Shown piece by piece: positions 18,273 to 55,689 of a stretch of DNA of 64,000 bases (within the stretch, counting starts at the first letter, position 1; every line of letters starts with the position of its first letter). Position numbers and translations under genes: made by a program. The stretch spans positions 17,042 to 81,041 of the forward strand of contig CBDFHC010000001.1 in NCBI GenBank assembly GCA_965247585.1, in the 5' to 3' direction. This stretch comes from Dehalococcoidia bacterium (GTDB lineage: Bacteria > Chloroflexota > Dehalococcoidia > Lucifugimonadales > GCA-2712585). The notes below the pieces were generated by a model that saw nothing but the letters and a program-made list of their open reading frames with translations, did not search any database and was not told where the DNA came from.

Positions 18273-18361
18273 AGCATTGTTTAGCCACAATGTCCAACGG
18301 GCGTGAGGGTCTGCACCTGCAAATGGAGCAGAGGTCAGAAAAGCAGGGGCGGGAGTAGAGA

Positions 18362-19294: not shown

Positions 19295-19315
19295 GAAGGG
19301 TGTCAGCGAAGATAC

Positions 19316-26552: not shown

Positions 26553-26577
26553 CCGGCTTCGAAAAGAGGAAGTAAAG

Positions 26578-33574: not shown

Positions 33575-36500
33575 ATGGTTTGGCTGTTGCGGCGGCGGCT
33601 ACGGACTCATTGGCTGCTATTGATGGTGGGCGCCTTTGGGGTGCTGGCAGCGTCGTCGTTGATATCGGTTTCGGACATTTACTCGCGGGCGCTGGCCGAG
33701 GGTGGGTTGAGGCACGTTATGTCAAACAAGGACTCGGCGTCTATCAATATGCGGGTGATAGTGCAGGAGAGGCCGCTGGGACCCAAGGACTATCCCCGGC
33801 TCAGGAGCGAGGTGGAAGGGATGCTCCAAGAGCACACGGAGTGGATGCTGGAGGGTACGGAGCGGTATGGGAGGCTGAGGGACACGGAGATGTCGCGGAG
33901 GGAGGACGAGCTGCCGACGGGGAGCTATCTAAGCCGGCCGTTCTTCCTGACGGGGTTCCAGGAGCACACGCGGATTGTGGACGGGAGATGGCCGGAGGCG
34001 GGGGCGGTGTTGCACGAGGACGGGGTTGATATGGAAGCGGTGATTGGGTTGGATGCAGGGGAACGGTTGAGGCTGGGGATAGATTCCAAGGTGTACGTGT
34101 ACCCGTTCATGTCCGAGCCGACCCAGCGGATCACGTTGAAGGTTGTAGGGCTGGTGGAGCCGCTGGATGACAGGGAAGACTTTTGGATGGGGTATCCGGG
34201 GTACTTCGATGTGGTGGACGTGACGGAGGACCGGTTCTCGCTGCCGGTATACCTGCGGGAGGAGGACTACCTGTGGGGGCTGGGAAGCCGGTATCCGAAT
34301 CTGATAGGCGAGTATGGTTGGCTGGGATATTTCGATTTCGACGTGATCACGGCGCCGGTGATGGAGCGGGCAGAGGATAGTCTGGCGGAGCTGGAGGTTG
34401 GGCTGAACAAGGGGGTGCCCAGGACGCTGGTAATAGCGGGTCTGAACAATACGCTGGAGAGTTACCAACGAGAGTTGACCCTGGCCAAGGTGCCTCTGTT
34501 GCTGTTCCTGACGATGCTGGTGGGGGCGATGCTCTATTTCCTGTTTCTGGCGATGGGGCTGCTGGGCCGGACGCGGCGGGATGAGGCGAGCCTGATGATG
34601 AGCCGGGGCGCCAGCGGGCTTCAGGTCTGGGGGTTGCTGCTGCTGAGTGACGGGGTGCTGGTGCTGCTGGCGGTGGTGCTGGGACCGTTGCTGGCGCTGA
34701 TTTTGGGACTGGCGGTGGTGCCGGAGCTGCCGAGCAGCATTGGAGGGGAGCAGCTAAATAACCCATTGAGCCTATCAGCGAATATGTTCCTGCTTTCAGG
34801 TGCGGGGGCGGTGGTGAGCTTTGGGCTGCTAATTTTCTCTGGCAGCTGCGCGGGGAGGCTGGGGATGGTGGCACACTTGAACGACAGGGCGAGGCCGCCC
34901 AGTCTTCCGTTGCTACAGCGGTATTACCTGGATGTGGTGGCGCTGGGGTTGATTGGGCTGGTGTGGTGGCAGATATATGAACGAGGAGGGTTCACCGCGC
35001 GAAAGCTGACGGGGATAGGGCTGGAGGTGGAGCCGAGTTTGTTGCTGGGGCCAATGTTGGCGTTCGCCGGGATAGCGATACTTATGCTGCGGGTGCTGCC
35101 GCTGGCGATAAGGGGTGCAAGCCGGGTGGCGGACCGTTTGGGTCCGATATGGCTATCGTTTGGGCTGAGGCGGGTGGCGAGGGACCCGCTGCCACACGCC
35201 TACCTGGCGGTGATGCTGCTGCTGGCAGGGGGGCTGGGTACCTTTGCCACGTCGGTGCAGGAGACGCGGTCGAAGAGCGAAGAGGATCGGGTGCTCTACT
35301 CTGTGGGGGCCGACGTGGTGGTGCAGGCGAGAGGAACGTCTTTGATGGAGGACCGGCTGGCTGAGATTGGCGAGGTGAAGAGCTTTAGCCCAATATACCG
35401 AGACATTCTTCAAGTGAGGGACAAGCCGGGGGTTGGCTCGGCGTTTTTGCTGGCGGCGGACTCGGAGATGATAGAGAACGTTTCGTGGTTTCGAGAGGAC
35501 TTCGCTGACGTAACACTGGGCGAGCTGGCAACGCGGATTAAGCCGGGGAAGCGGGCGAATGAAGGGATCAGTATTCCCGGGGAGCTGCGGACGCTGGGGT
35601 TGTGGGCCAGGGTGGATGTGCCCGGGATTGCGCCCACCATAACGTTAAGGATGCGAGATGCCAGGGGCCGGTTGGGTAAATTGACGATGGAGAAGTTGGA
35701 TAGCCAGGAGTGGACGTACCTGGAGAAGGAGACGGAAACGTGGCTGGGCGGGCTTGAAGCGCCGCTGGAGCTGTATTCGATTTCGATAAAGTATGTGTTT
35801 GCGGGGGGGCCGAAGATAGGGAGCGTGAGTATAGACGATGTGACGGTTACCAGGGTGGGGGCACCGGACCGGCGTGAAGTGGTGTACAGCTTTGAGGGGG
35901 CCAGCCCGTGGACGGCGTTTCCGAATAGAGGGCTGGTGCCGGACGAGGTGGAGCATTCGGCGAAGGCTGCACGGAGCGGTGATACGGGGCTGGAGTTTAG
36001 CTGGGCGGAGATGCTGGTAGACGCCAACCGGGGGGCGATAATTCCGTTGGGGCCGTTTCCGCTGCCGGCGGTAGGGGGGACGCCCTTTCGGACCGGAGAC
36101 ACGGTGCGTTTGTTGGTAGGGAGGGAGAGGGTACCGATCCCGGTGGAGGTAACCGGTGAGGCGCGGTTCTTCCCGACGGCGGGACGGCTGAACCAGGCGT
36201 TTCTTTTGGTGGACCTGGAGACGTATGCGGACTATTTGAGGGTAGTGGGCCTAGGGGGACGGCAAGGGCCGGAAGAGTATTGGTTGGAGCTGGACGGTGG
36301 GGAAGCGCGGGAGGCCGCGGTGGCTACTATCAGAGAGGGGATTCCGTCCCGGGCGGCAATTATAGACAGCGAGGATGTGCTGGAGGCATCACGGCTTGAC
36401 CCGTTGAACGGGGCTGGTTGGTGGAGCTTGAATGGACTGGGGCTGGTGGCGCTGGTGCTGGTGGTGCTGTTCACGTTGGTGTTGCATGGGACGGTCTCGG

Positions 36501-36838
36501 TGAGAGGCTCACGGGTGGACCTGGCGGTGGTAAAGGCGCTGGGACTTTCCAGGCGGCAATTATGGCTCAGCCTGGGGGTGGAGCGGCTGATTGTAGCGTT
36601 CTTCGGGATAGCGGTGGGGGCAGGGACAGGGCTGCTGCTGGCCCGATGGGTGCTGGATAGAACGGATATCACGCCGGGAGGGTTTCCGGCGGTGCCTCCG
36701 CATATTCTGACGGTCCAGCCCTGGTTGCTGGGGTTGGTAATGGGGTTGCTGGTGGGGCTTTCGATAGGCAGCGCGGTGATGGCGGGGGTGCTGGCGGGAA
36801 GGATCAAGAACTCTGACACGCTGCGGTTGGGACAGTGA
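33575..36838 (+). CDS. Large ABC transporter permease with two FtsX-type domains (MacB/YbbP-like), copy 1
   Basis: About 1090 aa from MVWLLRRRLRTHWLLLMVGAFGVLAASS.. (typical FtsX-family N-terminus; the ORF track starts at 33500). There are about 10 predicted TM helices in two 4-TM FtsX blocks, with two large extracytoplasmic domains. Confidence 0.8.
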   Translation: MVWLLRRRLRTHWLLLMVGAFGVLAASSLISVSDIYSRALAEGGLRHVMSNKDSASINMRVIVQERPLGPKDYPRLRSEVEGMLQEHTEWMLEGTERYGRLRDTEMSRREDELPTGSYLSRPFFLTGFQEHTRIVDGRWPEAGAVLHEDGVDMEAVIGLDAGERLRLGIDSKVYVYPFMSEPTQRITLKVVGLVEPLDDREDFWMGYPGYFDVVDVTEDRFSLPVYLREEDYLWGLGSRYPNLIGEYGWLGYFDFDVITAPVMERAEDSLAELEVGLNKGVPRTLVIAGLNNTLESYQRELTLAKVPLLLFLTMLVGAMLYFLFLAMGLLGRTRRDEASLMMSRGASGLQVWGLLLLSDGVLVLLAVVLGPLLALILGLAVVPELPSSIGGEQLNNPLSLSANMFLLSGAGAVVSFGLLIFSGSCAGRLGMVAHLNDRARPPSLPLLQRYYLDVVALGLIGLVWWQIYERGGFTARKLTGIGLEVEPSLLLGPMLAFAGIAILMLRVLPLAIRGASRVADRLGPIWLSFGLRRVARDPLPHAYLAVMLLLAGGLGTFATSVQETRSKSEEDRVLYSVGADVVVQARGTSLMEDRLAEIGEVKSFSPIYRDILQVRDKPGVGSAFLLAADSEMIENVSWFREDFADVTLGELATRIKPGKRANEGISIPGELRTLGLWARVDVPGIAPTITLRMRDARGRLGKLTMEKLDSQEWTYLEKETETWLGGLEAPLELYSISIKYVFAGGPKIGSVSIDDVTVTRVGAPDRREVVYSFEGASPWTAFPNRGLVPDEVEHSAKAARSGDTGLEFSWAEMLVDANRGAIIPLGPFPLPAVGGTPFRTGDTVRLLVGRERVPIPVEVTGEARFFPTAGRLNQAFLLVDLETYADYLRVVGLGGRQGPEEYWLELDGGEAREAAVATIREGIPSRAAIIDSEDVLEASRLDPLNGAGWWSLNGLGLVALVLVVLFTLVLHGTVSVRGSRVDLAVVKALGLSRRQLWLSLGVERLIVAFFGIAVGAGTGLLLARWVLDRTDITPGGFPAVPPHILTVQPWLLGLVMGLLVGLSIGSAVMAGVLAGRIKNSDTLRLGQ

Positions 36839-36861: not shown

Positions 36862-39800
36862 ATGGGCCTGCTATCACTGTTTAACCAGTCACTGATGATC
36901 GCCATAGGGCGGATCAGGTCCGGCTGGCGCCTGGAGCTGGTGTTGTTCTTTGGGATACTGCTGGCGGTGGCGCTGATGGCCAGTGGAGTCATCTACTCTG
37001 ACTATCTGGAAGAGACGACGCTACAGAGGACCCTGGAGAAGGCGAGCCCCAACGAGGCCAATGTGGCGTTCCTGAGCATAGAGCGGCTGAACCCGGTGAA
37101 GTACCAGGCTGTGCAGAAGGTGGTGGGGCGGGATATGACGCCTGGGCTGGCGCCGTTCATGGTTGAAGAGTCGCAGTTCATGGAGACCAACACCTTCTTC
37201 TATTCAGGGCACCCGCAACTGGAGCTGGACAATGATGTGAGACCGCGGGGCAAGTTGCAGTACCTGCCGGGAATAGAGAAACGAACGCGGCTGGTGGATG
37301 GGAGGTGGCCGGTTGAACGGGAGGGCGTGATGGAGGTGGCGATAGACAGCCTGGGGCTATTGTTGCTGGAACTGGGGGTGGGCGACGAGATGCGGATTAT
37401 CCGGCCGCCGCAGACGGCGCCGATGTCCGCCAGGGTCGAGATTGTGGGGGAGTTCCAGCGGCTGGACCCCGAGGACGAGTTCTGGTACGGGATTGAAGGG
37501 GCGTTCAGCGTGCAACGGGACGACTGGGCGTCAGTGCCGATGTTCACGGCGTGGGAGAACCTGTTCAGGGGGACGAGTATAGAGTCCGAGGCGTTGTATC
37601 CCTCTGTGAAGTGGTTCTACTACCTGGACCGGGAAGGGCTGGGTTCCGAGGATGTGGCGCCACTGAGGAACACGCTGAGGCGGATTCTGCTGGTGAAACA
37701 GGCGCAAATTCCGAACGGCTCGATATCAACCAGTCTGTTGAAGCTGCTGGACCGGTACTCCGAGCAGGTGCTGCTGGCGAGGATTCCGCTGTTCCTGCTG
37801 GTGTTTATGTCAACTGGGATACTGCTGTTCTACCTAGCGCTGGTGGGGACGGTGGTAGTGAAGGGACGCGCGGGGGAGTTGTCGCTGTTGAAGAGCCGGG
37901 GGTCAACCACGGGGCAACTGGGGCTGATGTCATTGGTGGAGGGTTTGCTGCTGGCGGCGCCGGCGATAGCGCTGGGACCGTTTCTGGCGCTGCTGGCGGT
38001 GCAGGCGCTGGGGGGTAGGCTGTTCGCGGGGGGAGAAGCGACGGCAGCGGTGGCGTCGGTATCGGCGACGGCGTTCGTGCTGGGGGCGGCCGGGGGGCTG
38101 CTGGCGGTGGGGGTATTTGTGTTGGTGACGACGCTGGCGGCGCACCGTGGGATGGTGGAGTTCAGGTATGAAGCGGCGAGGCCGGCGCAGACGCCGTGGT
38201 TGCACCGGTACTACCTGGATATTGCCATATTAGGGGCGATTGGGGTGCTGTGGTGGCAGATACAAAGCAGGGGATCGTTCCTGGTGAGACCGCTGGGCGA
38301 GGGCAATTTGCAGATGGACTATTCGCTGTTGCTGGGTCCGGCGCTGGGGCTGCTGGCGTTCGGGTTGTTGGTGCTGCGGTTCTTCCCGATATTGGTTTCG
38401 TTGATGATGCGGCTGATAGCGCCCATAGGGGCGCCGTGGGTTGTCCATGGACTGCGCCGACTGTCCCGGGACCCGGTAATGCCGGGTATTCTGGTTGTGC
38501 TGTTGATGATAGCCTCGGCGCTGGGTGTGGCGGTGGCGGTGCTGAGCTCAAGCGTGGAACGAAGCCAGCGGGACCGGGCGTACTATGAGGCGGGGGCGGA
38601 CCTGCGGATTGAGCACAACCCGAATCTTTTTACGACGAGTGGCGCCGACGCGGCGGCGGTGGTGAGGTCTGACCCCGGGGTAGTAGAGGCAACAGCGGTG
38701 CGACGGGAGGACGGGAGCCTGCTGACCAGCGGCAGAAGCGAGTCGATTTCCGTGCTGGCGGTGGAAAGCTCTCGGTTCGCCGACGTGGCCTGGTTCCGGG
38801 AGGACCTGGCGGGATTGGGGCTTTCAGATCTGACCGGGGTGCTGACGCCGGCCGACGCAGGGGAGGACGGGATCTTGCTGCCGGAGGATACAACGCACCT
38901 GGCGCTATGGACCCAGCCGGGCAGGTCTGATTACCGGGCGCTGGTCAGGGCGAAGGTGGAGGACAGCGAAGGGCTGATTTTCGAAATGTTTGTCGGCCAG
39001 CTAGACCGGAGGGACTGGGTGCGGCTGGAGGGCCCGGTGGCGCCGTTGCCGATACGCGGGTTGGGCAGGGCGCGGGTGACGGCGGATGTGAAGCCGCCGT
39101 TCAGGCTGCACTCGCTGTCGTTCGTGTTCGCGTCGCAGGCAACGGAGCCCAGTGTGCTGTACCTGGACCGGCTGACGGCGGTGACGCCGGACGGGGAGGA
39201 GCTGGTGACGGAGTTTGGTGAAGCGGAGGACTGGCAAACATTGGAAGATTACTCCAGGCCGGGGCTGACGGGGCTGGAACGGAGCGAATCGGTGACGCGG
39301 GAGGGGCGGGCGACGGCGGTGTACACGGCGTCACCGGCGGGGCTGGCGATCCGTGGAATACGTCACGGGAAGGAGCAGCGACCGCTGCCAGCGGTGGTGA
39401 GCGAATCGTTCGCCGAGCTAGCGGACGCCGAGGTGGGAGATACGGTGAATGTGCGGCTGTTCAATGTGGCGGCGCCGATCAAGCTGATGGCGGTGGCGGA
39501 GTATTTCCCAACGCTGTTCCCGCGGAATGAGCCGTTTGTGGTGTTGGAGCTGGATACGATGAACCAGTTCTCCAGTCTGCACAGGAGTCAGAACATATCG
39601 GGGCCGGACGAGGTGTGGGTGAGGCTATTGGACCCGTTGGCGTCGCCGGAAGGCCTGGTGAGATCTTTGCGGGAGTCAGGGGTCACGGTGCAAGAGGTGC
39701 ATTCGGCGGAGGAGATGGCGGCGGAGCGGCTGGGCCAGACGCTGGTGACGTCCGGGTGGGAAGGGCTCTTCGTGCTGATGTTCCTGTCAGTGGTGATGTC

Positions 39801-40179
39801 TGGCGTCTCCGGGGTGATGTTGTTCGCATATATGGATACGCGGGACCGGCAGACGGAGTTTGCGTTGCTGCGGACGTTGGGGCTTAGTCAGGCGCAGCTC
39901 CGCGGCGTGGTGTGGTTTACGCTGATGGTGGTGATGGCGGCGGGAGCGGGGCTGGGGACGCTGATGGGAAGGGGAATGTCAGGGGCGCTGCTGCCACTGC
40001 TGGAGGTGGCGGAGGAGGGGGTTAGGGTGACGCCGCCTATGGTGCTAGAATCCAATTGGCTGGCAATAGCGGCGCCATATCTAACGATGGTGGTAGTGGC
40101 GGCGATTGCGGCGCCGTGGCTGGCGTGGCTGGCGTACAAGTTGGAGCTGCAACGGGTGCTTAGGATGGGGGCCGGATAG
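36862..40179 (+). CDS. Large ABC transporter permease with two FtsX-type domains, copy 2
   Basis: 1105 aa with the same architecture as 33575..36838 (..IGRIRSGWRLELVLFFGILLAVALMASG.. at the N-terminus; C-terminal FtsX block ..FALLRTLGLSQAQLRGVVWF..). A diverged paralogue, starting 23 nt after its neighbour. Confidence 0.85.
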   Translation: MGLLSLFNQSLMIAIGRIRSGWRLELVLFFGILLAVALMASGVIYSDYLEETTLQRTLEKASPNEANVAFLSIERLNPVKYQAVQKVVGRDMTPGLAPFMVEESQFMETNTFFYSGHPQLELDNDVRPRGKLQYLPGIEKRTRLVDGRWPVEREGVMEVAIDSLGLLLLELGVGDEMRIIRPPQTAPMSARVEIVGEFQRLDPEDEFWYGIEGAFSVQRDDWASVPMFTAWENLFRGTSIESEALYPSVKWFYYLDREGLGSEDVAPLRNTLRRILLVKQAQIPNGSISTSLLKLLDRYSEQVLLARIPLFLLVFMSTGILLFYLALVGTVVVKGRAGELSLLKSRGSTTGQLGLMSLVEGLLLAAPAIALGPFLALLAVQALGGRLFAGGEATAAVASVSATAFVLGAAGGLLAVGVFVLVTTLAAHRGMVEFRYEAARPAQTPWLHRYYLDIAILGAIGVLWWQIQSRGSFLVRPLGEGNLQMDYSLLLGPALGLLAFGLLVLRFFPILVSLMMRLIAPIGAPWVVHGLRRLSRDPVMPGILVVLLMIASALGVAVAVLSSSVERSQRDRAYYEAGADLRIEHNPNLFTTSGADAAAVVRSDPGVVEATAVRREDGSLLTSGRSESISVLAVESSRFADVAWFREDLAGLGLSDLTGVLTPADAGEDGILLPEDTTHLALWTQPGRSDYRALVRAKVEDSEGLIFEMFVGQLDRRDWVRLEGPVAPLPIRGLGRARVTADVKPPFRLHSLSFVFASQATEPSVLYLDRLTAVTPDGEELVTEFGEAEDWQTLEDYSRPGLTGLERSESVTREGRATAVYTASPAGLAIRGIRHGKEQRPLPAVVSESFAELADAEVGDTVNVRLFNVAAPIKLMAVAEYFPTLFPRNEPFVVLELDTMNQFSSLHRSQNISGPDEVWVRLLDPLASPEGLVRSLRESGVTVQEVHSAEEMAAERLGQTLVTSGWEGLFVLMFLSVVMSGVSGVMLFAYMDTRDRQTEFALLRTLGLSQAQLRGVVWFTLMVVMAAGAGLGTLMGRGMSGALLPLLEVAEEGVRVTPPMVLESNWLAIAAPYLTMVVVAAIAAPWLAWLAYKLELQRVLRMGAG

Positions 40180-40235
40180 GAGGGTGATGATAGGCGATAA
40201 AGGGGAGTTGAGGCGCAGGAGGGAGGCAATCCTGC

Positions 40236-41345
40236 ATGCCGGCTGAAAGTGGCAGCACCGGGGATGAAAATCTAAGCAGGAGGGTCTTAAGGAAACGATG
40301 CGGGTGGCTATTCTGAGGCGTAATCAGCAAAGACAATGGGTACCATTATTTGACCGGATTGCGAATCACAGGTTGGTGGTACCCACCCGCCGGCCCAGGA
40401 AGGTTTTTAGGGTTGATTAATGAGGGACACCCTCAGACTCCCGGCAGATGGGGTATTCCCCCTCTGCACTCCTCCTTTGGAGGCGTCCTTGAAGGGACGA
40501 TGTATCTATTTTTGGGAGAACCGAGCGTGCCGGTTGAGGCTGGAACCACCAGGGATGAGAATCTAAGCAGGAGGCTCTTAGGGAAACGATGCGAGTGGCT
40601 ATTCTGAGGCGTAATCAGCAAAGACAATGGGTACCATTATTTGAACGGATTGCGAATCAGAGGTTGGTGGTACCCACCCGCCGGCCCAGGAAGGTTTTTA
40701 AGGTTATTTCTGAGGGACACCCTCAGACTCCCGGCAGAGAGGCTGTGCCCCTCTGCACTCCTCCTTTGGAGGCGTCCTTGAAGAGACGATGTATCTATTT
40801 TTGGGAGAACCGAGCATGCCGGTTGAGGCTGGCAGCACCGGGGATGAGAATCCAAGCAGGAGGGTCTTAAGGAAACGATGCGGGTGGCTATTCTGAGGCG
40901 TAATCAGCAAAGACAATGGGTACCATTATTTGACCGGATTGCGAATCAGAGGTTGGTGGTACCCACCCGCCGGCCCAAGAAGGTTTTTAGGGTTGATTAA
41001 TGAGGGACACCCTCAGACTCCCGGCAGAGAGGCTGTGCCCCTCTGCACTCCTCCTTTGAAGGCGTCCTTGAAGGGACGATGTATCTATTTTTGGGAGAAC
41101 CGAGCGTGCCGGTTGAGGCTGGAACCACCAGGGATGAGAATCTAAGCATGAGGCTCTTAGGGAAACGATGCGAGTGGCTATTCTGAGGCGTAATCAGCAA
41201 AGGTGGTTGGTAGCGCTGTTTGAACGAATGGTAAATCACAGGTTGGTGGTACCCACCCGCCGGCCCAGGAAGGTTTTTGGGGTTGATTACTGAGGGACAC
41301 CCTCAGACTCCCGGCAGATGGGGTATTCCCCCTCTGCACTCCTCC
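40236..41345 (+). repeat. Tandem array, ~290-bp unit x ~3.8, of a composite repeat (C + spacer + A)
   Basis: The anchor .TGCCGG(C/T)TGA..GCTGG.A.CACC.GGGATGA.AATC.AAGCA.GAGG recurs at 40237, 40528, 40817 and 41107 (periods 291/289/290). Module-A cores lie at about 40421, 40710, 41001 and 41290. Copies 1/3 and 2/4 are more alike in the 5' half, while copies 1/4 and 2/3 share the variable hairpin. Confidence 0.95.
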
Positions 41346-41425
41346 GTGGGGGCTTTTTAACCGGATGATGGCAGTTATTTCCGAGGCGGTAGAATGAAAG
41401 GGAAGAGTAGAGGATTGGTGGAAGG

Positions 41426-42328
41426 TTGAACGATCAGAAGGACCCGCATATTCTGTGCCGCGACCTGTTTAAGATATATAAGCGGGCGGAGCTTGAGGTG
41501 GTGGCGCTGAGGGGCCTGGATATGGAGGTTGCCGTTGGAGAGCTGGTGGCCATTATTGGCTCCAGCGGCAGCGGCAAGTCCACGTTGCTCAATATTCTGG
41601 CGGGGCTGGACCGGCCTTCGGCGGGGGAGGTGCGGGTGGGGGCAAGGGACCTGCTGAACATATCTGACAAAGGGTTGGTGATGTACCGGCGGCTGGAGGT
41701 GGGGTTTGTGTGGCAGGTGCCGGGACGGAACCTGGTGCCGTATCTGAGCGCGGTGGAGAATGTGTCGCTGCCGATGGCGATAGCGGGGGTAAACTCGCGG
41801 GACCGGCACGTGCGGGCGATAGGGCTGCTGGAGGCGCTGGGGTTGAAGGAGAAGTTGCACCGGAGGCCGCACCAGCTTTCGGGCGGGGAGCAGCAGAGGG
41901 TGGCGATTGCGCTAGCGATGTCGAATTCACCGGCGCTACTGCTGGCGGACGAGCCGACGGGGGAGCTGGACACGCAGAGCGCGGCGGGTGTATTCGAGCT
42001 GTTGCAGTCGGTGAATCGGAACTCCGGTGCGACGGTGGTAATTGTCACGCACGATGTTTCGGTGGTGGATTACGTAGACCGGGTGATTAACATTCGAGAC
42101 GGGAAGATAGGCTCTGAAACGGTGGTGACGAATTCGTACCAACGTGGGGTTGGCAGGGTGGCGGAGGACTTTCTGGTGGTGGATAAGGCGGGGAGGTTGC
42201 AACTGCCGCACGAGGTGATGGAGCGGTTTGGGGTGGGCTCTCGGGTCCGGCTGGGAACGGACGGAGGGCAGATCACCATTGAGGCGGCGGAAGTTAGTGA
42301 CGGTCAGGACGAGGCCGATGGACGGTAA
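41426..42328 (+). CDS. ABC transporter ATP-binding protein (MacB/LolD-type) with ~70-aa C-terminal extension
   Basis: 300 aa, TTG start. Walker A GSSGSGKST, signature LSGGEQQRVAIA, Walker B LLLADEPTGELD. The tail is ..LVVDKAGRLQLPHEVMERFGVGSRVRLGTDGGQITIE.. Confidence 0.9.
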   Translation: MNDQKDPHILCRDLFKIYKRAELEVVALRGLDMEVAVGELVAIIGSSGSGKSTLLNILAGLDRPSAGEVRVGARDLLNISDKGLVMYRRLEVGFVWQVPGRNLVPYLSAVENVSLPMAIAGVNSRDRHVRAIGLLEALGLKEKLHRRPHQLSGGEQQRVAIALAMSNSPALLLADEPTGELDTQSAAGVFELLQSVNRNSGATVVIVTHDVSVVDYVDRVINIRDGKIGSETVVTNSYQRGVGRVAEDFLVVDKAGRLQLPHEVMERFGVGSRVRLGTDGGQITIEAAEVSDGQDEADGR

Positions 42329-43022
42329 TCAGCCTGTTATTGTGGCGGATGGTCTGGTGCGGGTCTTCCGATCCGGGAACGAGTTGGTGGAGGCGGTGAA
42401 TGGGGTGGAGTTGGAGGTTGCGGAGGGGCAGTTCCTGGCGATTGCGGGGCGGTCCGGCTCTGGAAAGACGACGCTGCTGAACCTGATGGCGGGCCTGGAC
42501 CAACCTACGGAGGGGAGGGTGATGTTCCAGGGACGGGACTTGAACCGGCTGAGGGACGGGGAGTTGGTGGAGCTGAGGCGAAGGAGTATAGGGTTTGTAT
42601 TTCAGTCGTTTGGGCTGCTGCCGCTGCTTTCGGCGTATGAGAATGTGGAGCTGCCGTTGCATATAGCAGGGGTGTCCGGGAGGGAGCGGCGACGCAGGGC
42701 GCTGGAGGCGTTGGAGCTGGTGGGGCTGGGCGCCAGGGCGCAGCACAGACCATTTGAGCTGTCCGGAGGGGAGCAGCAGAGGGTGGCGGTGGCACGAGCA
42801 TTGGTGAACGGCCCCAAGGTGGTGTTTGCGGATGAGCCCACCGGGGAGTTGGACACGGTGACGGCGGAGGCGGTGTCTTCGATGCTGCGGCAGATACTGG
42901 TGGAGCGGGGGATTACGGTGGTGGTGGCGACGCATGACCAAACGCTGATGGCCAAGGCGGACCGGGTGGTGGAGCTGGTGGACGGGGCGCTAGTAGGCGA
43001 TAAGGTGAAAGACGGATGCTAG
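42318..43022 (+). CDS. ABC transporter ATP-binding protein (MacB/LolD-type)
   Basis: 234 aa from ATG 42318, overlapping the upstream stop by 11 nt. Walker A GRSGSGKTT, LSGGEQQRVAVARA, Walker B VVFADEPTGELD. Confidence 0.9.
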   Translation: MDGNQPVIVADGLVRVFRSGNELVEAVNGVELEVAEGQFLAIAGRSGSGKTTLLNLMAGLDQPTEGRVMFQGRDLNRLRDGELVELRRRSIGFVFQSFGLLPLLSAYENVELPLHIAGVSGRERRRRALEALELVGLGARAQHRPFELSGGEQQRVAVARALVNGPKVVFADEPTGELDTVTAEAVSSMLRQILVERGITVVVATHDQTLMAKADRVVELVDGALVGDKVKDGC

Positions 43023-44204: not shown

Positions 44205-45080
44205 ATGCTGGGGGGCCATCGCCCTCTGGATTCCCCCAGGAGGCTGCTTAGGGGGATGGAGGTAGAAGCAGTATGGGCTGGTCCTTCGGGGGTCTCAGGA
44301 TGAGCAGGTTGGAGGGCGGAAGGTCAATTTTTGAGGCAATCAGTGATGGCGATGGGTATCGCGACGACGAAGGACGGCGAATCGGAGGTTGGTGGTACCC
44401 ACCGACCCGCCCAGTAGGGTTTTAAGAGTTTTCCTGAGGGACTGCCTAAGACTCCCGGCAGAAAGGCTGCGCCCCTCTTCACTCCCCCATTGGGCAGGCG
44501 TCTTAGATGGCAGGATGTTTCTGGTATTGAGGCGATCAGCCATGGCGATGTATATGGTTACGACGAAGGGCTGCGAATCACAGGTTGGTGCCAGAAGTGG
44601 ACGTGAAGGTGGGATATGCTCTCCCCCCGCACCCAGACTCTTCGATCCTCACGGGCGGACTCAGAATGACATGGTGGGGAGGTGGAATGGGGCCGGAGTG
44701 AGGTGGGAAGGGGTATGGAAGCCGGATGGGATTCTATTTTTGAGGCAATCAGCCATGGCGATGGGTGTGGGTACGACGAAGGATTGCAAATCACAGGTTG
44801 GTGCCAGAAGTGGACGTGAAGGTGGGACATGCTCTCCCCCCGCACCCAGATTCTTCGATCCTCACGGGCGGACTCAGAATGACATGGTGGGGGGGTGGAT
44901 CGGGGCCGGAGTGAGGTGGGAAGGGGTATGGGCTCGTCCTTCGGGAGCCTCAGGATGAGCGGGTTGGAGGCGTAGGAGGCTCGTTTTCATAGGAATGACA
45001 TGGTATATAAGATGCGCCACTGGCCATGAAGTACCGTGACCGGAGCCATGGAAGCGGGCTGAGGCGCTATTTGCGGCGGT
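44205..45080 (+). repeat. Intergenic mosaic repeat block (A 3' fragment, D, A, 2 x [A5'/B hybrid], D, E)
   Basis: Contains an A core at about 44434. A ~213-bp unit is duplicated (anchor ATCAGCCATGGCGATG at 44535 and 44748), in which ..GCGAATCACAGGTTGGTG is fused to CCAGAAGTGGACGTGAAGGTGGGA.ATGCTCTCCCCCCGCACCCAGA.TCTTCGATCCTCACGGGCGGACTCAGAATGACATGG. The block ends with D + E. Confidence 0.85.
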
Positions 45081-49425: not shown

Positions 49426-50256
49426 CTAGCGGGTGCGGGTGCGGGGGTCCAGCAGGTCTCGGAGACCGTCCGCGAACAGGGAGAAGGCCAGGACGGTAAC
49501 GCCGATGGCGAGGGACGGATAGAGGACGGGGCCGTAGGAGTGGAGGATGACGCCGTAGCCTTCCTGGACCATGGCGCCCCAACTGGGGGTGGGGGGGCTG
49601 ATGCCGATGCCGATGTAGCTGAGGGCAGCCTCGGCGAAGATGGCCCTGGGGGCGAGGAAGAAGGCGGCGGCGATGACCGGGCCCAGGGCGTTGGGGAGCA
49701 GATGGCGTCTCGCGATGTAGCCGGTGGTGGCGCCGGAGGCGGTGGCCGCAAGGACGAAGTCCCGCTCCTTGAGAGCCAGGGCCTGGCCCCGGACCAACCG
49801 GGCGAGAAGGGGCCATGATGCCATGCCAATGGCCAGGGCCATCATGACCGGGCCACCGCCAAAGACGGAGCGCAAGAGGACCATTAACAGGAGGGCCGGG
49901 AAGGCGAGGAGGATGTCTACGCCTCGCATGACCAGGGTGTCTACCTTCGGACCGGCGACGGCGGCGGTGAGGCCAACGGGTATGGCGATGGCCAGGGCGA
50001 GGAGTTGGGCCAGTATGCCGACGCTTAAGGAGGTGCGGGTGCCGTAGATGAGGCGGCTGAGGAGGTCCCGGCCCAACTGGTCGGCGCCCAGGAGGTGGTC
50101 AGTCGACGGGCCCTGGAGGGTTGCCTGATAGTCCTGGTGGGCGGGGTCTTCTGGGGCGATGAGGGGGGCGGCGACGGCGGTGAAGGCTAGGAGCAGAATT
50201 ACGGCTCCGCCGATGAGGGCGGGGCGGTTTCTTAAGGTGTGTGACAGGGTGAGCAT
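49426..50256 (-). CDS. ABC transporter permease (DppC/OppC-like)
   Basis: 276 aa. ..HLLGADQLGRDLLSRLIYGTRTSL.. and a BPD_transp_1 core. Confidence 0.9.
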   Translation of the reverse strand: MLTLSHTLRNRPALIGGAVILLLAFTAVAAPLIAPEDPAHQDYQATLQGPSTDHLLGADQLGRDLLSRLIYGTRTSLSVGILAQLLALAIAIPVGLTAAVAGPKVDTLVMRGVDILLAFPALLLMVLLRSVFGGGPVMMALAIGMASWPLLARLVRGQALALKERDFVLAATASGATTGYIARRHLLPNALGPVIAAAFFLAPRAIFAEAALSYIGIGISPPTPSWGAMVQEGYGVILHSYGPVLYPSLAIGVTVLAFSLFADGLRDLLDPRTRTR

Positions 50257-50303
50257 GGTGGTCTAGCGTGGCGTTGGGAGATGTGGCGTTTGGCGATGGT
50301 GGG

Positions 50304-51266
50304 TCAGGACGCCTGCCCCGGCGTTGCGCCGGATGGCCGAGGGGATATGAGGTGGCGCCGGATTCTGGGGTCCACGGCGGCGTAAAGGAGGTCTACGGCC
50401 AGGTTCACCACGGCGATGAGGGCTGCGTAGAAGAGGACCATGCCCATGATGAGGCTGTAGTCTCTGGCGAATACGCCCTGGACGAAGAGGCGGCCGGTGC
50501 CTGGGATGGAGAAGACGGATTCTATGATTAATGATCCGGTGATGAGGGCGGCGAGTTCGGGTCCAATGAGGGTGAGGATTGGAATCAGGGCGTTTCGGAG
50601 GACGTGGCGGAGGTTCACCAGCCGAGCGGGAAGGCCTTTAGCCCGGGCGGTACGGATAAAATCGTCGTTAACGACGTCGAGGACGGCGGCCCGGGTGATC
50701 CTGGCGATGAAGGCGGCGGGCACGGCGGCCAGGGCCAGGGCGGGCATGACGGCCTGGGAGGGAGAGCCCCAGCCGCCGGTGGGCAGCAGGTGCCACTCCA
50801 AGGAGAAGAGGACGACCAGCAGGATGGCAAGGACGAATCCCGGAATGCCGGCGAAGAGCGCGACGAGGCCATTGGAGATGTAGTCCAAGGGGCCACCGCG
50901 TTGGAGGGCGGCGGCCAGGCCCAGGGGGATGCCCACCGCCAAGGAGATGAGGAAGGCGAGGGCGCCGAGGGTGGCGGAGGCGGGGATCCCCTGCGCTATA
51001 ACGTTGGACACTTTCCGGTCCTGGCCGCCGTAGGATATGCCCAGGTCGCCGGTGACCGCGCTGGAGAGGAAGGTCCAGTACTGATGCCAGACGGGGTCGT
51101 CCAGGCCGTAGCGGAGGTTAAGGTTGGCGACGGTCTCCGGCGGGAGTTTCCTTTCGCCGTCCCAGGGGCCACCTGGAACGAAGTGCATGATGAAGAAGGT
51201 GAGGGTGGCGACGCCGAGCATGACGGGAAGCACCCATGCGACACGACGAATAAGGTACCAGGCCAT
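50304..51266 (-). CDS. ABC transporter permease (DppB/OppB-like)
   Basis: MAWYLIRRVAWVLPVMLGVATLTFFIMHFVPGGP.. is the canonical DppB/OppB N-terminus. ATG at 51266 (an in-frame GTG lies at 51269). Confidence 0.9.
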   Translation of the reverse strand: MAWYLIRRVAWVLPVMLGVATLTFFIMHFVPGGPWDGERKLPPETVANLNLRYGLDDPVWHQYWTFLSSAVTGDLGISYGGQDRKVSNVIAQGIPASATLGALAFLISLAVGIPLGLAAALQRGGPLDYISNGLVALFAGIPGFVLAILLVVLFSLEWHLLPTGGWGSPSQAVMPALALAAVPAAFIARITRAAVLDVVNDDFIRTARAKGLPARLVNLRHVLRNALIPILTLIGPELAALITGSLIIESVFSIPGTGRLFVQGVFARDYSLIMGMVLFYAALIAVVNLAVDLLYAAVDPRIRRHLISPRPSGATPGQAS

Positions 51267-51367
51267 CACTCGGTGGTGGGGCCTGGGGGCGTTCCGGGGA
51301 GGATGGTAGGGGGGTGATTTTCGCGGTTAGGTGAAAGGCGGGGGGGCATGGCGATAAGTATGTGCAC

Positions 51368-51600
51368 CAAGGAGGATGAAGGTCAAAGGCTGTGGGTGGG
51401 CCGCGCATTTGCGGGGGAATCAGCCATGGCGATGGGTGTTGGCACTACAGAGGACGGAGAATCGAAGGTTGGTGGGCGCACCCCCTCTCTAACTCTCCCC
51501 CAAGCGATGGGGTGAGAATTTTTGTCTGAAGGCCACCCTCAGACTCTCGGCAGCCACCACCTGGGTTCCCTGCACTCTCCTGTGGGGTTGGTGCTGGTTA
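51368..51600 (+). repeat. Intergenic mosaic repeat (C-like + degenerate A), plus-oriented between minus-strand genes
   Basis: ..GAATCAGCCATGGCGATGGGTGTTGGCACTACAGAGGACGGAGAATCGAAGGTTGGTGGGCGCACC.. then ..CTGAAGGCCACCCTCAGACTCTCGGCAGCCACCACCTGGGTTCCCTGCACTCTCC.. Confidence 0.8.
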
Positions 51601-51603
51601 GGG

Positions 51604-53256
51604 TCAGTCCGAGACGGAGACGCGGGAGAGGCTGGAGTCGCCGGGGATGAAGCCGTCGATGCCGGTGAGAGCCAGACCCTTCACGTGGGGTTTCTTGAGG
51701 AAGAAGCGCTCTTGATGGAAGACGAAACCCACGGGGACATCTTCGACCAGGAGGCGATGTGCTTGCATCCACAGGTCCAGGCGGGTCTCTTGGTCCAGCT
51801 CAGAGATTGCCTGACCGGCTAGTTGGTCGTACTGGGGGTTGCTGTAGCCGACGATGTTTTGGGGAGAGCCGGACATGAAGAGGCCCGCCAGGAAGCTCTC
51901 GGGGTCCGGGTAGTCAGCGCCCCAGCCGAGGCCGGTGATCTGGAACTGGCGAGCGCCCATGACCTGGCCGAAGTAGGCCGGCGGGTCCAGGGGCTCCAGG
52001 TCCATCTGGATGTCCAGGTTGTCCTTGAGTTGGGCCTGTACAAACTGGGCGAAGAGGCCCTGACCGCCGCCAGAGGGGTAGGTGAAGGTGAGGTCAGGGA
52101 AGCCCTGACCGCCGGGGTAGCCGGCGTTTGCGAGGAGCTGCCGAGCCTGCTGGGGGTTGAAGGTGTTGTCAGCGCCTATGGAGGCTTCGTAGCCGGGCAT
52201 GCCGGGGGGAAGCCAGCCGAGGGCGGGTTTGCCGACGCCGTTGCTGACCTGGCTGATCCAGGCGTCACGGTCCACGGCGTTGGTGAAGGCGCGGCGGACC
52301 TCAAGACTATCAAACGGCGGGTTGGAGTTGTTGAAAAAGAGGCCCAAGGTGAAGAGGTCCGAGGTGCGGAGTAGCTGGGAGCTAAGGTCGCTATCATCAA
52401 GGATGGACGGCTCGGTGCCGGAGGGCACCCGGGAGATGTCCAGCTCGTTGTTGCGGTAGGCGGTCAGCTCGGAGTTGACGTCGCCGATCATTCGTAGGGT
52501 GATGCGGTCCAGCGCGGGCGTGGGTCCCCAGTAGTTTGGGTTGGCCTCCAGGGTGATGTGGTCCTGGTGCTGCCATTCGGTCATGACGAAGGGGCCGTTG
52601 CCGAGGTAGGTTGCGGGCTCGGTCCAAGCGACGCCGTGCGCTTCGATCATGTCACGGCGGACGGGGAAGACGTTGATGAGGGCCATTTTTTGGAGAAAGG
52701 TGGGGTTGGGCGTGTCCAGGGTCACGCGAAGGGTATGAGGGTCAAGGGCTTGGACCTGTACGGACGCTTCCAGGGCGTGGAGGGTGTCGTCGTCGGCCCC
52801 GGCGGCCTGGTTGAAGGCCATGCCGCCGGAGATGGCGCCGTAGAGGACGGAGTACTGGGCGGCGACCCGAGGGTCAAAGAGCCGTTTGATGGCGAAGACA
52901 AAGTCGTCAGCGGTGAGCTCCTGTCCATCGCTCCAGGTGACGTCGTCGCGGAGGGTGAAGGTGTAGGCGAGGCCGTCTTCAGAGATGCCACCGTTCTCTT
53001 TGGTGGGCACCTGGGTGGCCACCACGGGCTCCAGGGAGAGGTCCGGGGCGAAGCCGAGGAGGCCCTGGAACACCTGGCGTATGACGGAGAATTCGGTGAG
53101 GATGCTGGCGCGCTGGGGGTCCAGGGTGAAGGGTTCCGACCCCAGGTTTAGGCGCAGCTCCTGGAGGGTGGTGGGGGTCTTGGAGTCGTCCTGCTGGCAG
53201 GCGGCGAGGAGCAGCAGCGAAAGGGCGAAGGCGAAAAAGAGGCCCAGCGCCTTCAC
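51604..53256 (-). CDS. ABC transporter substrate-binding lipoprotein, family 5 (Dpp/Opp type)
   Basis: From GTG 53256: VKALGLFFAFALSLLLLAAC.. (lipobox), then an SBP_bac_5-like body (..LRLNLGSEPFTLDPQ.., ..WSDGQELTADDFVFA..). The ORF-track start at 53370 adds a non-signal leader. Confidence 0.85.
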   Translation of the reverse strand: MKALGLFFAFALSLLLLAACQQDDSKTPTTLQELRLNLGSEPFTLDPQRASILTEFSVIRQVFQGLLGFAPDLSLEPVVATQVPTKENGGISEDGLAYTFTLRDDVTWSDGQELTADDFVFAIKRLFDPRVAAQYSVLYGAISGGMAFNQAAGADDDTLHALEASVQVQALDPHTLRVTLDTPNPTFLQKMALINVFPVRRDMIEAHGVAWTEPATYLGNGPFVMTEWQHQDHITLEANPNYWGPTPALDRITLRMIGDVNSELTAYRNNELDISRVPSGTEPSILDDSDLSSQLLRTSDLFTLGLFFNNSNPPFDSLEVRRAFTNAVDRDAWISQVSNGVGKPALGWLPPGMPGYEASIGADNTFNPQQARQLLANAGYPGGQGFPDLTFTYPSGGGQGLFAQFVQAQLKDNLDIQMDLEPLDPPAYFGQVMGARQFQITGLGWGADYPDPESFLAGLFMSGSPQNIVGYSNPQYDQLAGQAISELDQETRLDLWMQAHRLLVEDVPVGFVFHQERFFLKKPHVKGLALTGIDGFIPGDSSLSRVSVSD

Positions 53257-53527
53257 GTCAATTAGACACCTTTGATTTCTTGATGATGACCCCCTGAAAT
53301 GGTGCCGAAGGCAAACAATATGCCGGATTTCGTCGGACGGTACTGTACACAATGGGACTCGCCAAGGCAAATATTCGCCGGGCGCGGAAGAACCGGCATA
53401 GTCAAGGGGTAGGTAGATTAGGGGTTAAATCTTCGCAGAACGGGGGGTGACTCCATTCCGGCGGGAGAGGCGCGGAGGCAGAGTTGAAAGAGAGCGAGAC
53501 CAATAAGTTTTGGTCCAGGGGCTGCCT

Positions 53528-54100
53528 ATGGGTGAGAAGAAGCTGTACCGAAGAGAGAAGGGCATAACGGGGCTGGAGACGGCCATAGTTCTGGTGGCGT
53601 TTGTGACGGTGTCATCGATATTCAGCTACTCGGTGATAAAGACGGCGTCCACCACAGGGCAGACGGGGACGGACCTGGCGGACACTCATATTGAGAAGAC
53701 GGTGCCGGTGCTGCACTTGAAGGGGATTGCGGTGGGCACTAAGTCTAAAGATACCAGCCCATCTCCGCACCTGGCGACGATTAAGCTAGCGGTGGAGGCG
53801 AGGCTGAGCAGCCCAGTGGAGATTACCACGGAGTCGCTGCTGATAGGCTACAGGGACGCCTATCAGTACGTTCCGGATATGACGTGGGCGGTACGGTGGT
53901 TGAGGGGGAATGGGGACCTGCTGGACCGGAATGAGCTGGCAGAGTTCACGTTGGACCTGTCAAAGTTGTCGCCGAGGCTGGGCGCGGCGACGCCGTTCAC
54001 GATAGAGATCAAGCCGCTGGCGGGCGGTACGTTGGATTACACTTTTGCCACGCCCCTGGGGTTGGACGATGTGACGGAGCTACCGGGGCTGGTACGGTAA
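53528..54100 (+). CDS. Archaellin (archaeal flagellin)-like protein with class III (type IV pilin-like) signal peptide
   Basis: MGEKKLYRREKG|ITGLETAIVLVAFVTVSSIFSY.. has a basic leader, a Gly, then the hydrophobic ..GLETAI.L.AFV.. helix characteristic of archaellins and archaeal pilins. The C-terminal half (..DLLDRNELAEFTLDLSKL..PFTIEIKPLAGGTLDYTFATP..) follows the archaellin beta-domain pattern. Confidence 0.6.
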   Translation: MGEKKLYRREKGITGLETAIVLVAFVTVSSIFSYSVIKTASTTGQTGTDLADTHIEKTVPVLHLKGIAVGTKSKDTSPSPHLATIKLAVEARLSSPVEITTESLLIGYRDAYQYVPDMTWAVRWLRGNGDLLDRNELAEFTLDLSKLSPRLGAATPFTIEIKPLAGGTLDYTFATPLGLDDVTELPGLVR

Positions 54101-54139
54101 AGGGGGAAAGGGGAGCTACCGGCGAGGGCTTTGGGGGGG

Positions 54140-55125
54140 TCAGCTATGGGGATGGGTATGGCCGCGAAGAAGGGTTGCAGATCGGGGGTTGGGGGCCTAC
54201 AGGGAAAGGTGGATGCGATGGTAGGACTTTCTCTCCCCCCGCACCCAGATTCTTCGATCCTCACGGGCGGACTCAGAATGACATGTTGGGGGGCGGAATG
54301 CGGTATGGGCTCGTCCTTCGAGAGCCTCAGGATGAGCGGGTTGGAGGCGTAGGAGGCTCATTTTCATAGGAATCGATCACGTTGGCGTCCAGCATTAAGG
54401 AGGATGAAAAGAGAGTGGCGGCTATGGTCCATGATGACCGGTATACCTATTACAAAGGGTTGCAAATCGAAGGTTGGTGGTTCCCACCGTCCCGCCCCGA
54501 AAGTTTATTCGGTTTAATTCTGAGGGACACCCTCAGACTCCCGGCAGAAGGGGTCATCCCCCTCTGGACTCCCTCTTTTGGGCGGGGTCCTTCATGCGGC
54601 GATGTTTCTATTTCGGGGGTGTCAGCTATGGGGATGGGGATGGTCGCGAAGAAGGGTTGCAGATCGGGGGTTGGTGGGCTACAGGGAGAGGTGGAGGCGA
54701 TGGTAGGACTTGCGCTCCCCCCGCACCCAGATTCTTCGATCCTCATGGGCGGACTCAGAATGACATGGTGGGGGGCGGAATGCGGTATGGGCTCGTCCTT
54801 CGAGAGTCTCAGGATGAGCGGGTTGGAGGCGTAGGAGGCTTATTTTCATAGGAATCGATCACGTTGGCGTCCAGCATCAAGGAGGATGAAAAGAGAGTGG
54901 CGGCTATGGTCCATGATGACCGGTATAGCTATTACAGAGGATTGCAAATCATGGGTTGGTGGTACCCACCCACCCGCCCCGGAAGGTTTTTAAAAGTTTT
55001 TCTGAGGGACACCCTCTGACTCCCGGCAGAAGGGGTCATCCCCCTCTGGACTTCCCCTTGGTAGGCGCAGGTAGAGTAGGGACGGTGCTATTTTCATAGG
55101 AATGACATGACTTATGTGGATGATT
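54140..55125 (+). repeat. Intergenic mosaic repeat block: ~482-bp composite unit x2 (A5'/B hybrid + D + E' + A)
   Basis: The anchor TCAGCTATGGGGATGGG occurs at 54140 and 54622. Both units contain ..CACCCAGATTCTTCGATCCTCA.GGGCGGACTCAGAATGACATG.., ..GGTATGGGCTCGTCCTTCGAGAG.CTCAGGATGAGCGGGTTGGAGGCGTAGGAGGCT.ATTTTCATAGGAATCGATCACGTTGGCGTCCAGC.. They also carry an A copy each (cores at about 54530 and 55002). Confidence 0.9.
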
Positions 55126-55215
55126 AATGAAGGACGATGTGAAGCGGAAAAATGCGCATGAAGTCAAATACTCAAGGGTTCGCAGGTGGTAGACACTGAG
55201 CAAAGGGGGAAGAGG

Positions 55216-55608
55216 ATGAAGATTCTAGTGACGCTGGATGGGTCCGACTTCGCCAGGGCGGCGTTGACGCCGGCCTCGGAGGTGGCGACCGCCGCGGGAG
55301 GGGAGGTTCACCTGCTGAGCGTGCTGAACGAGTACGAGACGGAGAGGGAGGGGAAGGTGGTGGAAAAGCTGCTGGCGGCCGAAGCGGCGACGCTTTCGCC
55401 GTTGAAGGTGGAGACCAAACTGCTTACCAGCGACCGCGTGGCGGAAGCGATAACGTCGTACGCCCGGGAGGAGTCGTTTGACTTCATAGCGATGGCGACC
55501 CATGGACGCACGGGGGTGGCAAAAACGATCATGGGGAGCGTGGCGGCGGAGCTACAGCGCATCAGTGACATCCCGTTGCTGCTGGTGCGGCCAAAGGAGC
55601 TAAAGTAA
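55216..55608 (+). CDS. Universal stress protein (UspA family)
   Basis: 130 aa from ATG 55216 (GGGGGAAGAGG upstream). MKILVTLDGSDFARAAL.. and C-terminal ..MATHGRTGVAKTIMGSVAAELQRISDIPLLLVRP (ATP-binding G-x2-G-x9-GS block). Confidence 0.85.
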   Translation: MKILVTLDGSDFARAALTPASEVATAAGGEVHLLSVLNEYETEREGKVVEKLLAAEAATLSPLKVETKLLTSDRVAEAITSYAREESFDFIAMATHGRTGVAKTIMGSVAAELQRISDIPLLLVRPKELK

Positions 55609-55689
55609 GCTGAGCGGGCCGAGGGGGATAGCTGGGGTGGGGACCGGAGGCTGGTGGACGTGAGTAGGGGGCGGTTTACGGAGGCGGGG

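Follow-up and report, generated by a model that had tools for sequence, protein, structure and literature searches.

The stretch of DNA analysed here, 64,000 nt from a Dehalococcoidia bacterium (contig CBDFHC010000001.1; hereafter the window), carries a plus-strand cluster of four ATP-binding cassette (ABC) transporter genes, and a tandem array of a composite, hairpin-containing repeat lies between its permease and ATPase genes. The first gene, perm1 (33575..36838), encodes an FtsX-domain ABC permease of ~1,088 amino acids (Pfam FtsX, E = 6e-12; the ATG at 33575 was checked). A gap of 23 nt separates it from perm2 (36862..40179), which encodes a second FtsX-domain permease of 1,105 amino acids (Pfam FtsX) and whose stop codon lies 56 nt before the first repeat copy. 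Beyond the array, atp1 (41426..42328) encodes a MacB/LolD-type ABC ATPase of 300 amino acids from a TTG start (Pfam ABC_tran, E = 5e-30; NCBIfam LolD/MacB-like matches fall below their cut-offs). The last gene, atp2 (42318..43022, ATG at 42318), overlaps atp1 by 11 nt and encodes a second ATPase of the same type. An earlier note on this DNA had described the same junctions and a sole gap of 1.25 kb, and the gene calls agree: the perm2/atp1 spacer (40180-41425) measures 1,246 nt and is nearly all repeat.

Tandem Repeats Finder places the array at 40256..41345, with a period of 290, 3.8 copies and 91% matches, and a BLAST search with one unit finds copies starting at 40237, 40528, 40817 and 41107, the size and anchors given in the earlier note. 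In an alignment of the copies (alignment A1, not to be confused with the A1 module introduced next), the array resolves into four head-to-tail elements of 238-240 nt and three linkers of 51 nt each, all on the plus strand. Copy 1 (40236..40475) comprises a C module, a canonical element with parts termed S, A1 and A2, a core (40422-40447) and a hairpin termed P4 (40444-40467, allele ATGGGGTATTCCCCC), followed by ACTCCTCC. Linker 1 (40476..40526) reads TTTGGAGGCGTCCTTGAAGGGACGATGTATCTATTTTTGGGAGAACCGAGC and includes two 5-bp hairpins. Copy 2 (40527..40764; core 40712-40737) carries a different P4 allele, AGAGGCTGTGCCCC, at 40734-40756, which recurs after linker 2 (40765..40815) in copy 3 (40816..41054; core 41002-41027, P4 41024-41046). 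Linker 3 (41055..41105) leads to copy 4 (41106..41345; core 41292-41317), whose P4 (41314-41337) has the allele of copy 1 and whose S part includes a private 30-nt segment at about 41203-41233; no donor for this segment was found within the window. Both outer sides of the array consist of degenerate, decayed linker-like sequence, namely the 56-nt lead GGGAGGCAATCCTGC on the left (40180..40235, from reading of the sequence and alignment A1) and a decayed fourth linker on the right (41346..41425).

The four copies diverge from one another by 5-10% and can be told apart by private markers. Of the variable sites, nine group copies 1 and 3 against 2 and 4, seven group copies 1 and 4 against 2 and 3, and none group copies 1 and 2 against 3 and 4. 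Because these partitions are incompatible and the copies are mosaics, repeated exchange or gene conversion is required. The earlier note had reported this patchwork, with both hairpin alleles exactly as found here, and had attributed it to unequal exchange or gene conversion, an explanation that the site partitions support. Its figure of about 12 strong hairpins holds as an order of magnitude, each unit forming two strong hairpins with stems of 7-10 bp as well as 4-5 hairpins of five bp. The folding energy of one unit is modestly better than that of shuffled sequences (z about -2.2) and is alike for RNA, for DNA and for either strand.

Ancestry and integrity of the array

The order perm1-perm2-atp1-atp2 is kept in 12 Dehalococcoidia loci from metagenome-assembled genomes (L001-L012, which include the perm1 orthologues) and in a SAR202 single-cell genome, the closest named relative. 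The perm2 orthologues are 41-44% identical in the 12 metagenomic loci and 62% identical in the single-cell genome, and those of atp1 are 56-62% identical. Across these 13 loci the perm2/atp1 junction spans about 3-120 nt (78 nt in the SAR202 genome), and both the repeat and the compositional skew described below are absent. Because the relatives keep the four genes with a short junction, the array is an insertion. This comparison of the orthologous locus, which the earlier note had proposed, places the array inside a cluster of conserved gene order and shows that the junction was short ancestrally and then received a noncoding composite repeat. A structured, untranslated insert of 1.25 kb now parts the membrane and ATPase halves of a cluster that is compact in relatives, which provides a natural test of the effects of repeats on polycistronic expression.

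An assembly expansion or collapse of the repeat, which the earlier note had named as the outcome that would undo its claim, might produce such an array. Short-read contigs do end within it. Among the short-read-like contigs from four independently assembled runs of one sample (X1-X4), none includes positions 41118-41249 (the 5′ half of copy 4), even with 90% similarity allowed. The gap probably arises because contigs of this kind omit minority variants. Against an artefact, both flanks are matched exactly by X1-X4 contigs, which extend into copy 1 as far as 40303 and leave copy 4 from 41316 onward. Exact matches also span the junction of copies 2 and 3 (40786-40883), which is unique, and the inner array pieces have 2-3x the depth of the flank. 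The divergence and private markers of the copies likewise speak against it. In addition, a contig from an independent seawater metagenome (X6), with a perm2 that is 1.4% divergent, runs from the end of perm2 into the array, where its substitutions at 40333-40357 convert copy 1 into the exact "private" variant of copy 4. This variant thus exists in nature. We consider an artefact extremely unlikely, and the number of copies is probably as assembled.

The copy next to perm2 in the X6 population is copy-4-like, which indirectly suggests that the arrangement or the copy number of the array varies. On copy 2, a 128-nt piece from X1-X4 aligns at ~2x the depth of a single copy. A strain difference or an assembly variant may account for the T at 41141.

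The dispersed family and its two-hairpin core

The array belongs to a mosaic repeat family that is dispersed through the window and fills most of its long spacers, and it is the largest cluster of that family. Self-comparison of the window yields 32 same-strand repeat blocks that make up 14.9% of its bases, with 686 direct and 4 inverted self-matches; repeat coverage in related loci is 0-6%. Common to the family is a 26-nt core, GAGGGACACCCTCAGACTCCCGGCAG, which occurs 24 times with at most three mismatches (0 expected) and 28 times with at most five, and all 28 cores are intergenic. The canonical dispersed element of ~150 nt runs from S (CAGCCATGGCGATGGG) through A1 (AATCACAGGTTGGTGG, which holds a GGTGG-NNN-CCACC hairpin) and A2 (CCCGCCCCGGAAGGTTT) to the core, a variable hairpin and CTGCACTCTCC. 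A minimal form, the core and hairpin alone, is present at 28394, 49296, 57269 and 60881. The 290-nt array unit is composed of the C module, which is private to the clade, the canonical element and the 51-nt linker. The 5′ motif of the C module, C1 (ATGCCGGTTGA...), is found elsewhere only at 4397-4432, at 15970 and once in a closely related strain (L134), and a linker-to-C junction like that between linker 1 and copy 2 recurs at 4346-4432.

Family members occupy co-directional, convergent and divergent spacers. In co-directional spacers they often start within a few tens of nucleotides after a stop codon, for genes of either strand. A hydantoinase pair (hyuA/hyuB) is split by a repeat-filled spacer of 357 nt (4197-4553), whereas unsplit pairs, namely a second one in the window (26553-26577) and that of locus L133, are 25-26 nt apart. 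Because this pair is split in addition to the transporter operon, insertion within operons is recurrent.

The core region consists of a 17-nt hairpin, P3 (CTGAGGG-ACA-CCCTCAG), followed by ACTCCCG, then P4 and ACTC. P4 is bounded by GCAG...CTGC and spans 15-28 nt with a variable interior, and on the core strand each of the two hairpins is followed by ACTC. P3 shows compensatory variants (TTGAGGG/CCCTCAA and TTGGGGG/CCCCCAA), and on the core strand its T·G wobbles exceed C·A mismatches. A perfect anchored P4 stem of at least 6 bp is formed by 62% of 144 distinct copies compared to 1% of shuffles; among these copies there are 13 different inner triplets, and AC follows in about 100 of the 144. 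These patterns make it clear that the core hairpins are under structural constraint.

Several identities for the repeat were considered and rejected. A coding role does not fit, given that the 290-nt period is not a multiple of three, stop codons differ and open reading frames (ORFs) are not conserved between copies. A CRISPR-like array is likewise excluded by units of 290 nt and the lack of unique spacers. A larger structured RNA in the S/A1/A2 part was also discarded, in that consensus folding recovers only the small GGTGG/CCACC hairpin and P3. Rfam gave no match at gathering score and none at E values up to 0.5 over the whole window, the hits within the array being noise (E 0.29-0.62), and a tRNA scan found none.

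Each unit could nonetheless be an independently transcribed small structured RNA gene, with the array representing a tandem gene family co-oriented with replication. The conservation of P3 and P4 with compensatory changes would fit this proposal, as would the excess of G·T over A·C mismatches on the core strand, a folding energy somewhat better than that of shuffles, and an orientation that is independent of adjacent genes (see below). However, strand-biased mutation would also give a G·T excess, and folding either strand as DNA gives the same score as folding the RNA. The S region lacks consistent covarying structure, Rfam offers no match, promoter signals do not rise above chance and no terminator lies within the units. 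Furthermore, ~1 copy per 2.3 kb would put the number of such genes in a genome at around a thousand. We therefore regard small RNA genes as highly improbable.

The core reaches well beyond this genome, with exact 26-nt matches in at least 120 metagenome contigs (L013-L132), usually one per contig. Among the matches listed, the samples include freshwater sediment, wetland, groundwater and marine sources, and the core sits inside repeats with differing partner modules. One such element, type X, reads CAACCCCC...CCCCCA-N-TCTTGGGGG and is assigned to Dehalococcoidia/Chloroflexota by the PurF of one host. In this freshwater type the gene past the upstream module is directed away from the element in 58 of the matches listed and toward it in 6, so that the reverse complement precedes the gene start, and in a few cases the element provides GGGGG 5-9 nt before an ATG. 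Another element, type Y, has the ends TAGCAGGGTGCTG...CAGCCTGCTA. Freshwater copies have ACCT or ACCG after P4. The core and the unit are absent from the viral contigs, plasmids and phages searched, and the searchable literature held nothing relevant on the core sequence, on SAR202/Dehalococcoidia repeats or on their GC skew.

Tandem Repeats Finder also reports four two-copy duplications of other composites of the family, each of ~2 copies with matches of 90-93%. Their periods are 341 (15197-15885), 174 (24122-24452), 213 (44527-44931) and 482 (54133-55059). A further recurrent module, GCTCTCCC.CCACACCCAGATTCTTCGA.CCTCA.GGGC.GACTCAGAATGAC, occurs at 4466-4530, 15400-15460 and 15740-15800 and also in two of the arrays (44527 and 54133). 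GGTTCGAA is found in its reverse complement, and the module is not called as a tRNA.

Strand polarity, strain turnover and the operon

Gene strands in the window were assigned from Pfam matches together with a gene call based on third-position G+C. Between 2 and 43 kb the genes are plus-strand, and between 45 and 64 kb most are minus-strand. All 28 cores (at most five mismatches) are on the plus strand, including seven in the minus-gene region. The plus strand holds 38% G and 23% C, a skew of +0.25 that extends along the window (2000-64000, the first 2 kb excepted). At third codon positions the GC skew is +0.47 in plus-strand genes and -0.51 on the coding strand of minus-strand genes, and the AT skew is near zero. 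To our knowledge, this strand compositional bias is among the strongest in bacteria. On six other strongly skewed marine contigs, 7/7 cores are on the G-rich strand, whereas 2/4 cores on four weakly skewed contigs are discordant with it. With L134 included, the strand lock holds on seven other contigs of this clade. The core has 8 G and 10 C, and thus the strand lock is not a by-product of its composition. The orientation of the family follows the DNA strand, whatever the direction of the genes.

Two paralogous sets of genes, each with an amidase, a family-5 solute-binding protein and two permeases, lie at 13658-20224 (plus strand) and 49426-57111 (minus strand) in inverted order. The repeats beside both sets keep the plus orientation and so were not carried along by the duplication. 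The direction of replication was deduced from skew only.

Comparison with the strain represented by L134, whose amidase is 96% identical to that of the window and whose genes are 92-93% identical at the nucleotide level, reveals how fast the repeats change. L134 shares the skew of the window along its whole strand. Six of the seven genes called in L134, on either strand, have a third-position skew of +0.41 to +0.53; the seventh, a 181-amino acid ORF with no Pfam match, has a skew of +0.02. L134 carries one core, four A1 and two S motifs, all in plus orientation, which is its G-rich strand. Repeat content differs in all spacers compared. Relative to the window, L134 is missing 5.5 kb, including the 341-nt array and three transporter genes, and has an extra 3.6 kb with two genes and several elements. 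The 174-nt duplication is also missing from L134. Where L134 (8830-9060) aligns with the window (24031-24200), a module of ~104 nt is nested in one A1 and flanked by RTCGGAGG repeats, and the same L134 element has an extra hairpin, TCCGCC-ACA-GGCGGA, between P3 and P4. After the amidase stop codon, L134 reads GGGGGTACCCCTTTTGG ACTCTCC and the window AGGGGGCACCCCT CAGACTCCCGGCAG...CTGC ACTCTCC. From these alignments, it seems that new hairpin modules enter at fixed joints. Four more distant loci (L135-L138), with amidases 81-82% identical, have neither the skew nor the repeats. By these comparisons, the family is confined to a narrow SAR202 clade and turns over rapidly.

The dispersal, orientation and turnover of the family bear on the role of the array in the operon. 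The earlier note had treated the array as a device of this operon, and one can envision an RNA-level regulatory insert that ends, processes or stabilizes the permease message, supplies an ATPase promoter, or both, thereby uncoupling the amounts of permease and ATPase. The cistrons on either side of the array are tightly linked in 13 relatives, the array has many stable hairpins, and members of the family tend to follow stop codons directly. A repetitive extragenic palindromic (REP) sequence lies between cistrons of an Escherichia coli transporter operon in the malE-malF case. Intercistronic REPs are reported to stabilize upstream transporter mRNA such as that of malE (PMC4942690, citing Newbury 1987). 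Consensus scans also mark two sites at the 3′ edge of the array: a terminator-like site at 41331-41352 followed by CTTTTT, and a promoter-like hexamer pair at 41368-41395.

As stated, however, this proposal is not supported. The scan counts equal chance, with one terminator-like site in 39900-41700 compared to 1.5 expected and a promoter-like pair no more frequent than chance would give. No terminator-like site lies within the units, and hairpins without U-tracts, as these are, are unlikely to act as efficient intrinsic terminators. Repeats of this family occupy most long spacers, divergent ones included, and also split hyuA/hyuB. Their orientation follows the DNA strand, independent of gene direction, and they turn over between strains whose genes are 92-93% identical (amidase 96%). 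We therefore judge an operon-specific regulatory insert to be unlikely. A passive insert that still affects expression appears more likely than a dedicated regulatory role. Like REPs, the array may protect the permease transcript at its 3′ end. It may also lower or uncouple ATPase expression, or the ATPase genes may be read from its 3′ edge; all of these effects are speculative.

The strand lock could alternatively mean that the elements are polar signals of chromosome architecture or replication, with FtsK-orienting or Chi-type logic, that selection keeps on the leading-strand sequence, the array being a harmless local excess. Complete co-orientation with the G-rich strand (28/28 in the window, 7/7 on the other skewed contigs, and L134 as well) is what such signals would produce. 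The repeats and the extreme skew co-occur only in one narrow clade, and the 26-nt core is exactly conserved across lineages, both of which also favor polar signals. However, known signals of this kind are 5-8 nt long, compared to mosaics of 70-240 nt here. The copies are restricted to spacers and turn over rapidly between strains, 2/4 are discordant on weakly skewed contigs, and the core of freshwater lineages is polar to genes instead (58 vs 6 among the matches listed). For these reasons we find the polar-signal proposal quite unlikely.

Origin and classification of the repeats

The array is a noncoding, locally amplified cluster of a strand-locked mosaic family resembling REPs and bacterial interspersed mosaic elements (BIMEs). 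We favor, as the probable explanation, that the family spread via single-stranded DNA and that the array was amplified by exchange or conversion. All family members are in direct orientation, so neighbors are substrates for unequal crossing-over or replication slippage. Either process could generate element-linker arrays, of four elements and three linkers here and of two and one elsewhere, and short gene-conversion tracts would then create the observed mosaic of copies (13|24 vs 14|23). Less certain is the route of dispersal. The family probably spreads as single-stranded DNA derived from whichever strand the replication fork exposes, which would explain why every core is on the G-rich strand. 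Handling of the repeat would fall to an HUH/Y1-type enzyme that recognizes hairpins, comparable to those of REPs and IS200/IS605, and this step too is less certain. Spread of this type, by which IS200/IS605 and REP/RAYT systems operate (PMC6006769), is supported by the strand lock, by the invariant P3 beside a P4 conserved in shape, and by the tetranucleotide tags.

Described REP palindromes are marked by an unpaired GTAG or CGTC tetranucleotide, and REP clusters are reiterated in tandem along with flanking DNA (PMC3733652). In REP/BIME systems the imperfect palindromes measure about 20-40 nt, two REPs in inverted orientation form the basic unit, and the repeats flank a cognate gene for a RAYT transposase of the Y1/HUH type. 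The family in the window shares many of these traits with REP/BIME (REPIN) systems. Its members are short extragenic hairpins of high copy number (28 cores in 64 kb), with an unpaired conserved tetranucleotide beside the stem and sites mostly just past stop codons. Its mosaic clusters are tandemly reiterated with flanking DNA (five tandem arrays in the window), and they are present between cistrons of transporter operons. Distinctions also exist. The tag here is ACTC (GAGT on the other strand), P3 and P4 are arranged head to tail, all copies are on one strand, and the units are composites of 70-240 nt. In addition, no RAYT gene was seen by Pfam in the window or by a crude motif screen of core-adjacent ORFs.

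The orientation of IS200/IS605 elements is tied to the replication fork through use of the lagging-strand template (PMC6006769). Like these elements and their miniature derivatives (palindrome-associated transposable elements, or PATEs), the repeats are defined by hairpins and biased toward one replication strand (28/28 in the window, 7/7 on skewed contigs). However, they lack a pair of like hairpins at opposite ends, P3 and P4 being adjacent and not terminal. No tnpA or tnpB and no conserved target tetranucleotide or flank was found among the sequences analysed, and mobility is deduced from strain differences only.

Other known repeat types fit less well. With respect to miniature inverted-repeat transposable elements of the terminal-inverted-repeat type, the window-type element has no inverted self-match, by which short terminal repeats could escape detection; the nested insertion in L134 has its RTCGGAGG flanks and type Y its paired ends. 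Pneumococcal BOX and neisserial Correia elements are modular intergenic repeats. The present family is likewise modular with one module tandemly amplified, intergenic, of stable secondary structure and possibly of effect on expression. In contrast to BOX and Correia elements, the window-type element has no detected terminal inverted repeats, its strand polarity is strict, and the core is common at 26/26 nt to different partner modules in distant Dehalococcoidia. Like intrinsic terminators and attenuators, the repeats place G+C-rich hairpins after a stop codon, but P3, P4 and the linker hairpins are all without a following U-tract. Thus, we classify the array as REP/BIME-like but outside the described REP superfamilies, and it is not a demonstrable IS200/IS605 derivative.

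Several findings weigh against spread as a REP/BIME-like family through single-stranded DNA. First, no HUH/Y1 transposase, reverse transcriptase or integrase was found in the 64-kb window, and a crude screen for HUH-Y motifs found none in 277 ORFs beside cores in metagenome contigs. Second, the hairpins carry neither a GTAG nor a CGTC tag and are not inverted doublets. Third, no clean pair of empty and filled sites was recovered, so that the ends of the element, its target site and its mobility are deduced indirectly; a search of seawater-metagenome contigs over 43-62 kb for empty sites gave only joints from repeats at other loci. Fourth, the C module is nearly private to this locus, and therefore part of the unit may never have been mobile. 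Finally, selection on a polar function, instead of insertion bias, could be behind the strand lock, and the gene polarity of the freshwater copies (58 vs 6 among the matches listed) hints at a transcription-level role of the core in freshwater Dehalococcoidia.

We speculate further that the core (P3-ACTC-CCG-P4-AC) is the recognition site of an enzyme that processes single-stranded DNA, that it defines a new REP-like superfamily in Dehalococcoidia, and that the SAR202 burst is tied to the replication-strand asymmetry behind the G/C skew. This extension is possible but doubtful. If true, the skew (third-position ~0.5, no A/T skew) and the strand-locked repeats would both reflect a single unusual mode of replication or repair.

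Within this genome the array is unremarkable. It is the family that deserves follow-up, given its complete strand polarity, the conservation of its core across the class and its co-occurrence with an extreme G/C skew. The family has not been described before and reaches a very high density, at about 15% of the DNA; its host belongs to an abundant, barely cultivated ocean lineage. The repeats account for the breakage of short-read assemblies of these genomes at almost every spacer. The repeats could also be used as strain markers and as a handle on replication-coupled DNA mobility in Chloroflexota.

The only transposase gene in the window is of the IS630 type (DDE_3; 789-1436, minus strand). 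Beside it, positions 1-97 and 773-869 form an inverted pair of 97 nt, a tandem repeat of 51 nt occupies 473-579, and positions 1-1600 form the sole patch of the window that lacks G/C skew. A link between this element at the left edge and the hairpin repeats was rejected, as the two have no sequence relation. Separately, an ORF at 53507-54100 encodes an archaeal-type flagellin domain (Pfam Arch_flagellin, E = 5e-13) in this bacterial SAR202 genome.

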